From a virus (taxonomy: Duplodnaviria; Heunggongvirae; Uroviricota; Caudoviricetes): 12,311 nucleotides of DNA. The position numbers and the translations under genes are program-made. The stretch lies in IMG/VR virus record IMGVR_UViG_2563366990_000020, positions 1 through 12,311 of that record. One strand, 5' to 3'. Positions 1 to 303 of the stretch are shown here, piece by piece (the stretch's first letter is position 1; each line of letters opens with the position of its first letter). Under the pieces are notes generated by a model. That model searched no databases. It worked only from the letters and a program-made list of their open reading frames with translations, and was not told the origin of the DNA.

Positions 1-303
1 ATGTTTGATAGGGAAATGATAAACGAAAATAAAGAGGCGTTTTTTCTGTATGTTAACGGTAGAGGGGAGTTGTCGGCTCAATGCGTGATAAAGGTGGCTG
101 AAAAAGGGGATTATTTACAAGGATACTCTTTAACTCGTCGCGCATTTCGTACCTTTTTGAAAGACCGTGTTATTCAGATGTTTTCTAGCGACCAGGAGTT
201 GAATAAGGTTGCATCTGAAACTGATTTCAGTCAGTATATTGCCCCCCCCCCGAAAATCTTCACCCAAAAAGAATTCAATTTCAATTTGTTTTACCGGATT
301 TGA
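1..303 (+). CDS. WYL-like domain ORF; probably the N-terminal segment of a frameshift-interrupted WYL/BRCT gene, and may continue upstream of the window
   Basis: Frame-1 ORF beginning with ATG at nt 1 (window edge, so the true start is uncertain). Residues about 14-58 (FFLYVNGRGELSAQCVIKVAEKGDYLQGYSLTRRAFRTFLKDRVI; nt about 40-174) match the WYL-domain signature as I recall it from PafC-type proteins (RWYLVG...AIRTFRLSRI). Frame ends at TGA 301-303, shortly after a C10 run at 242..251. Deleting one C joins this frame to ORF 209..1195. AT-rich (19 G+C in the first 60 nt by hand count). Confidence 0.5.
   Translation: MFDREMINENKEAFFLYVNGRGELSAQCVIKVAEKGDYLQGYSLTRRAFRTFLKDRVIQMFSSDQELNKVASETDFSQYIAPPPKIFTQKEFNFNLFYRI

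Follow-up and report, generated by a model that had tools for sequence, protein, structure and literature searches.

The locus analysed here raises the question of why a gene carries ten consecutive cytosines at the point where its reading frame breaks, and whether such a run acts as a switch, as a recoding site, as a trace of gene loss or as an error of assembly. The original prediction had weighed an ON/OFF or long/short isoform switch against a frameshift or sequencing artefact. We consider a slipped-strand ON/OFF locus that would give phase variation of a prophage cargo gene to be the best explanation, with a probability of about 0.7 as judged from allele sequences. The allele found in the window (the whole stretch of 12,311 bases that was analysed) would then be in the OFF state.

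The C10 tract and the split gene

The tract occupies positions 242-251 of the window sequence and is bounded by G at 241 and G at 252. The surrounding gene had been described as AT-rich, and indeed the G+C content of gene 1..1195 is 38.2% compared to 55.2% for the whole window. From the base composition of this gene, the number of C10 runs expected by chance is 7e-6. The tract is the sole homopolymer of at least eight nucleotides in the 12,311 bases, where other C/G runs reach a maximum of six. In 255 kb of related enterobacterial loci, just one further C/G run of at least seven was found, a C8 in a Pectobacterium locus. The features of the gene are the following.

1..1195, plus strand: whole accessory gene, frameshifted in the window; with an in-frame tract it encodes 397-400 aa (WYL-like domain, linker, BRCT domain, C-terminal domain, CTD)
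1..303, plus strand: upstream ORF of the OFF allele; 100 aa, consisting of 84 authentic residues and a 16-residue out-of-frame tail
37..219, plus strand: N-terminal WYL-fold (Sm/SH3-like) beta-barrel and helix, residues about 13-73
209..1195, plus strand: downstream ORF, 328 aa, TTG start; authentic coding sequence from 252 onward only
242..251, plus strand: C10 mononucleotide repeat in the non-conserved inter-domain linker; putative hypermutable site of out-of-frame (OFF) length
269..478, plus strand: BRCT domain of RFC1/LigA type, from Pfam BRCT and PDB profile matches
506..1192, plus strand: C-terminal beta-rich domain without known family or solved fold relative; also occurs stand-alone with ~200 aa

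Translation confirms that the tract lies where ORF 1..303 (frame 1, ATG start) and ORF 209..1195 (frame 2) overlap. The repeat is thus placed inside the ORF of the gene, ~20% into the coding sequence. The 84 authentic residues of the upstream ORF comprise the WYL-like domain, the start of the linker and the Pro run, while nucleotides 209-241 of the downstream ORF are a frame-2 read-through of the upstream ORF. Removal of a single C leads to a continuous ORF of 397 aa, as had been anticipated for a C9 tract, and exactly this protein is present in public assemblies.

The start of the downstream ORF had been read as an ATG at 209 with its own AAGG ribosome-binding site, from which a BRCT-only product could be made. 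In fact, position 209 begins a TTG, the first one to follow a stop. This TTG is immediately preceded by the AAGG at 205-208, which leaves no room for a spacer and makes the AAGG unusable as a Shine-Dalgarno site; an AGGAG is located at 194-198, 10 nt upstream. This AGGAG would suit an isoform switch, in which the split allele makes a WYL-only sensor and, from TTG 209, a BRCT-CTD protein with an activity unlike that of the fused form. The CTD also occurs naturally as a stand-alone protein, and WYL-BRCT pairs without CTD are found in other P2-like phages. Against such a switch stand the TTG in place of an ATG, the missing spacer and the finding that 209-241 evolves as frame 1. At position 213, the polymorphism A213G leaves Ala71 of frame 1 unchanged but exchanges His for Arg in frame 2, which marks frame 1 as the frame under selection there. 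In addition, TTG 209 works only for tract lengths of remainder 1 modulo 3, for C8, C11 and C14 alleles annotation resorts to starts within the BRCT domain, with products of 305 aa or 271 aa, and in none of 24 distant homologues is a WYL gene followed by a separate gene for BRCT and CTD. We regard the isoform switch as quite improbable. From the two kinds of switch proposed at the outset, the ON/OFF form is upheld by near-identical alleles ranging from C7 to C18, and the BRCT-only isoform, which had been based on the misread start codon, is not supported.

Tract lengths in public assemblies

A comparison of tract lengths across homologous loci had been suggested as a check on the original prediction. 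We predicted the product for each tract length and looked it up by exact match in public E. coli assemblies. All of the products predicted for other lengths (10/10) are present. Tract length is clearly variable, with C7-C16 and C18 found, a mode at C11 and alleles that are at least 99.5% identical outside the tract. Among these near-identical alleles the repeat number changes the frame: in-frame lengths encode WYL-linker-BRCT-CTD proteins of 397-400 aa, out-of-frame lengths N-terminal fragments of 99-109 aa. The census is as follows.

C7: 13 contigs, OFF
C8: 32 contigs, and 24 on two other 107-aa cluster members identified by length alone, OFF
C9: 18 contigs, ON
C10: 90 contigs, OFF
C11: 244 contigs, OFF
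C12: 49 contigs, ON
C13: 44 contigs, OFF
C14: ~48 contigs (32 by exact look-up, the others same-length cluster members), OFF
C15: 9 contigs, ON
C16: 2 contigs, OFF
C18: 1 contig, ON

In total, ~497 contigs are out of frame and at least 77 are in frame (C9, C12, C15, C18), where the ON counts are lower bounds since an exact match over ~400 residues was needed. The ON share of 13-20% of resolved contigs lies below the one third expected at a random spread of lengths, and is an undercount because of this same demand on ON alleles. Contig counts are raw, so that clonal relatives and one sample in two sources may count repeatedly, and the peaks at C11 and C10 may represent a few expanded lineages. 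Annotation of the two complete E. coli genomes that carry the gene includes an intact allele in each, C12 with 398 aa in one and C15 with 399 aa in the other.

The two products of the window allele itself were matched exactly on 44 contigs for the N-terminal ORF and on 41 for the downstream ORF (NCBI, ENA and Logan assemblies). The 100-aa N-terminal product is also found in 60 collection blocks and led to eight independent loci at two chromosomal attachment sites, in which C10 could be read directly in the DNA. C12 was read in one metagenome contig and C13 in a further locus (L011). A pattern scan for the flanked tract returned 0 matches in genome contigs and one in metagenome contigs, too few for a census.

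These observations bear on whether the true sequence is in frame and C10 a homopolymer miscall. Homopolymers of ten or more are error-prone on several platforms, and many assemblies break at the tract. We counted at least 229 N-terminal (71-80 aa) and at least 76 C-terminal partial products at contig breaks beside it, more than 300 together. Such breaks are expected of a long or heterogeneous G/C run and give an indirect hint, the only one, of switching within clones; they can also arise where Illumina quality drops along a long G/C run of uniform length. In contrast, the exact recurrence of both ORF products and the eight independent C10 loci exclude the one-off assembly error that had been left as an option, and miscalled consensus sequences scattered about a single true length would not span C7 to C18. 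An artefact is excluded for the locus and, with both products recurring exactly, very unlikely for the window itself; among the explanations considered it is the least credible.

Haplotypes and selection

With the tract set aside, each of 12 loci departs from the window at 1-6 sites, and one of them has an in-frame 6-bp insertion in addition. This insertion belongs to a C10 allele (L006, ~4160-4201), where it lies near the 3' end, changes AGDKKK to AGDTDKKK and gives a downstream ORF of 330 aa. A single identical protein haplotype is found with C9, C10, C12, C15 and C18, while C10 is present on at least five SNP haplotypes and at both the ytfP and the bioH attachment site. The tract therefore changes its length, repeatedly, at a much faster pace than the gene acquires point substitutions. 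ON and OFF lengths thus share the same genetic background, where background refers to the gene only. We observe both a series of lengths and recurrent length changes on identical haplotypes.

Of the 12 substitutions, nine are synonymous once the frame is repaired, and they are distributed over both sides of the tract. The remaining three exchange residues: Y42F, V119I and, within the linker, R84Q. None of the OFF alleles examined contains a second stop or frameshift. The comparison of alleles shows both gene halves to be intact and, as far as the pattern of substitutions indicates, under purifying selection. The closest paralogue (58% identity, same ytfP-side prophage slot) has TAT ATT CCT CCC AAG at the site of the tract and hence no homopolymer, and it is found only as one intact product of 401 aa in 38 collection blocks. 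In another relative the linker is mixed and C/T-rich. The pure C run is thus derived in one lineage.

According to the preferred reading of a slipped-strand ON/OFF locus, the C10 run would be a hypermutable mononucleotide repeat in a poorly conserved linker of a P2-like prophage cargo gene, which gains or loses C's by slipped-strand mispairing during replication. Lengths divisible by three (C9, C12, C15, C18) would give the full protein with 2-5 linker prolines and represent the ON state. For the remaining lengths, including that of the window, translation would stop after the WYL-only fragment and the gene would be OFF. The rate of slippage would be high enough for mixed ON/OFF populations, that is, for phase variation. 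Lysogens could in this way hedge the cost and benefit of a DNA-sensing accessory protein which they express and which may exclude other phages.

A length series of this kind could also arise at a mutational hot spot without adaptive role. In that case E. coli lysogens could do without the gene, and its OFF alleles would be pseudogenes of recent origin. OFF alleles do predominate in the census, with C11 as the mode. Furthermore, the gene is missing in 10 of 12 closely related prophages of complete genomes, in which identity with the window starts at ~1194-1203. Because of this absence, the gene is, by genome comparison, optional cargo and dispensable for the phage, and given the low ON fraction, OFF may be neutral loss of a dispensable gene. 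However, the OFF alleles are free of secondary stops and frameshifts, the excess of synonymous substitutions on both sides of the tract argues against long-term decay, and ON alleles persist on haplotypes that they share with OFF alleles. The latter implies back-and-forth change rather than one-way decay. We consider a hot spot without function unlikely, while taking it more seriously than the other rivals.

Possible recoding at the tract

Recoding would provide a different role for the tract. Out-of-frame alleles would still yield full-length protein, either by slippage of RNA polymerase on the C run or by ribosomal frameshifting on proline codons, and the tract would be an expression attenuator and not a genetic switch. 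For C10 a +1 shift at CCC-C is needed, for C11 a -1 shift at C-CCC-CCC. Three consecutive prolines should pause the ribosome (EF-P dependence), which counts for recoding, whereas wild-type cells should show little +1 slippage as background, which counts against it. The frame-1 reading GCC CCC CCC CCG A holds CCC-C quadruplets, a +1-prone context for tRNAPro (PMC4519876, PMC7577736), and a +1 shift at CCC-C in C10 leads exactly to the C9 protein.

The two-frame layout is not conserved, since a single ORF is found in each of the 24 distant homologues as well as in many alleles; homologues consisting of two stable separate genes, the outcome named in the original prediction as speaking against a switch, were not seen. 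The 89 nt following the tract (window 252-340) fold at -8.8 kcal/mol with z = 0.55 compared to shuffled sequence, and there is therefore no stimulatory structure downstream of the tract. Both OFF frames are common, so that no single direction of frameshifting is favoured. An excess of the '+1-rescuable' frame class in first look-ups vanished once C8, C11 and C14 were counted. We reject a conserved programmed frameshift, given the lack of a conserved layout and of a downstream structure, and hold recoding as the function of the tract to be improbable. Low-level rescue of C10 by +1 slippage of tRNAPro at CCC-C or by RNA-polymerase slippage may occur.

Domains of the gene product

The gene product matches PHROG 36782 over its full length (E 9e-74). 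Its distant homologues have 382-485 aa and 34-59% identity and come from E. coli, Salmonella, Enterobacter, Pectobacterium, Yersinia, Aeromonas and metagenomes. In all of them (24/24), a variable linker connects a WYL fold to a BRCT domain, and an uncharacterised domain follows at the C-terminus. The tract is positioned in the linker, which is the least conserved stretch of the family alignment, and variable proline number should be tolerated for this reason.

The BRCT domain (Pfam PF00533) passes the gathering threshold with 34.3-35.8 bits against a cutoff of 21.3, and among PDB entries a family profile hits RFC1 and LigA in their BRCT regions, with E 3e-5 to 1e-3. The WYL domain (Pfam PF13280) misses its threshold, with 12.7 bits against a cutoff of 21.8 (E 0.13), and the PADLOC WYL model matches with E 0.027. 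Structure models were made domain by domain, and the N-terminal domain has a WYL-type Sm-like beta-barrel fold.

NCBIfam LigA models match only the terminal BRCT region, with 30 bits against a cutoff of 444. The adenylation and OB-fold catalytic domains of NAD-dependent DNA ligase were not found in the window protein. A function as DNA ligase or exonuclease, as given by database names, is rejected since the BRCT segment alone matches. PADLOC-DB 2.0 contains no full-length match to any defence-system protein. Residues 70-163 (BRCT) match the C-terminus of the candidate PDC-S48 with E 8e-7, for which we found no mention in the literature; with only this partial match, assignment to a known defence system is likewise rejected. 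In literature on BRCT and prophage defence and on homopolymer phase variation in E. coli prophages, no description of the gene was found.

The C-terminal domain (window 506-1192) represents a sizeable uncharacterised family with 344 representatives at E <= 1e-3. Its members are mostly stand-alone proteins of 190-240 aa, and in some the BRCT domain is C-terminal rather than N-terminal. Among ten relatives scanned, none has a Pfam match to this domain.

Titles of structure entries describe WYL-fold domains of CapW and DriD solved with single-stranded DNA (PMC11662680). The window protein suggests itself as a DNA-sensing accessory protein that is expressed in lysogens and possibly excludes other phages, because it joins a WYL fold to an RFC1/LigA-type BRCT domain and a recurrent BRCT-associated domain and is encoded in a lysogeny or attP-side cargo slot. 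One may go further and propose an E. coli SSR contingency locus on a P2-like prophage, in which the poly-C run stochastically switches a so far undescribed single-gene DNA-sensing effector of superinfection exclusion or abortive infection. The WYL domain would then be the single-stranded-DNA sensor, the RFC1/LigA-type BRCT domain the binder of DNA ends and the C-terminal domain a novel effector, and the switch would let lysogen populations hedge protection against cost or toxicity. This more specific proposal is speculative, and we think it rather unlikely in its full form.

Prophage context

The gene is cargo of a P2-like prophage and adjoins the attachment site. The remainder of the window is a P2/HP1-like myovirus tail module (tape measure, DUF2590, baseplate J, P2 gpI, tail-collar fibre, fibre assembly and an HP1 ORF34-like gene). 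In the prophage of E. coli O22:H8 strain 154, the order is ppa / int, C, cox ... A, ogr, portal ... tail, hok/gef, BRCT gene / ytfP. Circularisation of the phage thus gives the order C, int, attP, BRCT gene, on one strand throughout. A like layout is found in the free phage Cartapus, with repressor, integrase, RES-domain gene, short WYL-BRCT gene and convergent ogr and D. There, the WYL-BRCT gene directly adjoins the RES-domain gene within the cargo slot that extends from int to ogr. In Salmonella and Pectobacterium prophages, the homologue lies between a cI-like repressor and int. The Salmonella homologue is probably co-transcribed with the repressor in lysogens, because it starts 3 nt past the repressor stop codon.

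The ytfP and bioH loci converge to identity ~135 nt upstream of the ATG of the gene, and the gene therefore travels with the phage. The two junctions share the core GGTGGCGCGAAAA, after which phage sequence starts. Near-identical P2-like prophages (97-98% over the tail module) occupy three sites, ytfP (L003), bioH (L004) and serS (L013/L014). In two paralogues whose proteins are just 58% identical, ~90 nt before the start codon are almost identical (L003 2870-2960 and L015 5875-5960). This segment lies outside the window and is, from its sequence, probably an attP arm or a common regulatory region.

Comparison with known systems

The poly-G/C contingency loci of Campylobacter, Neisseria, Haemophilus and Bordetella resemble the locus in that a mononucleotide G/C run is located in the 5' fifth of an ORF, single-base length steps among near-identical alleles toggle the frame, and both ON and OFF alleles circulate. 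In contrast to these loci, which serve surface structures or restriction-modification enzymes, we find the tract in E. coli and in a prophage cargo gene with domains of intracellular DNA-binding type, where the variation is seen among allele sequences. For E. coli, a 2025 review of phase variation lists promoter inversion (fim) and Dam methylation (pap, sfa), the textbook mechanisms (PMC11868660). The nearest phage example is provided by Campylobacter phage genes with hypermutable poly-G tracts, as summarised in that review (Sorensen et al., via PMC11868660). By this summary, both cases concern a phage-borne gene with a G/C homopolymer, which in Campylobacter phages creates ON/OFF subpopulations; there, however, it is the virion receptor-binding protein of lytic phages that varies. 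Here it is non-structural cargo beside attP of a temperate P2-like phage, with variation in the prophage. The proposed mechanism is that of a classical homopolymer contingency locus.

Small WYL-BRCT proteins of Peduoviridae (PHROG 2561; Cartapus gp32) share the N-terminal module of WYL-like and BRCT domain (E 6e-37 to the PHROG) and the genome position between int/attP and ogr-D. They differ in their size of ~160-170 aa and lack the C-terminal domain. PHROG 2561 is labelled 'DNA ligase' and Cartapus gp32 (L026 2005-3980) 'putative exonuclease'. These names rest only on the BRCT match; ligase models hit just the BRCT domain in the window protein, and gp32 with only ~160 aa cannot also hold the ligase catalytic domains.

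Unlike the WYL sensors CapW, BrxR, DriD and PafBC, the window protein contains neither winged-HTH nor WCX, and its WYL-like domain, which is below the Pfam threshold, is fused instead to a BRCT and an uncharacterised domain. It is thus not a transcription factor of this family. Programmed +1 frameshift or transcriptional slippage sites (prfB, dnaX, IS elements) are similar in having a slippery CCC-C or homopolymer where two frames overlap. The locus described here departs from such sites, with common in-frame alleles, a two-frame layout that is not shared by homologues and no stimulatory element found.

Significance

Phase variation by means of repeats is commonly seen as a hallmark of host-adapted pathogens with small genomes. 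The locus is unusual both in its E. coli host and in the type of gene, prophage cargo with intracellular DNA-binding domains. An E. coli prophage homopolymer with at least 11 lengths across several hundred public assemblies offers a ready natural system for measuring slippage-driven switching in a mismatch-repair-proficient enteric bacterium. It also allows asking why a temperate phage would render a cargo gene unstable, and probing the uncharacterised WYL-BRCT family that P2-like phages carry in their lysogeny module or in the cargo slot on the attP side. For annotation it matters that pipelines report 'BRCT domain-containing protein' of 305-329 aa, small hypothetical proteins or partial genes, and that many draft assemblies are interrupted at the tract.

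Neighbouring genes

The window contains one hok/gef toxin gene (1310-1450, minus strand), which is convergent with the BRCT gene. Its terminator hairpin at ~1205-1221 abuts the stop codon of the BRCT gene. In relatives, the prophage end near the gene carries 1-3 tandem hok/gef copies (e.g. L001 7312-7925, L013 3912-5250), and segment 1194-1300 is present in 2-5 copies per genome. A search of the entire window against Rfam returned no match. In related prophages, the tail-fibre gene is annotated by RefSeq as a split pseudogene, whose two 'incomplete' pieces are separated by ~517 bp. We regard this as an annotation quirk, since the tail-collar fibre ORF is continuous with 688 aa, both in the window (5838-7904, minus strand) and in L013 (9625-11691). 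Downstream of the tail-fibre assembly gene, two further ORFs on the minus strand, 2315-3988 (557 aa) and 4505-5230 (241 aa), flank the HP1 ORF34-like baseplate gene. Neither has a Pfam match, and together they may constitute a second fibre or receptor-binding module.
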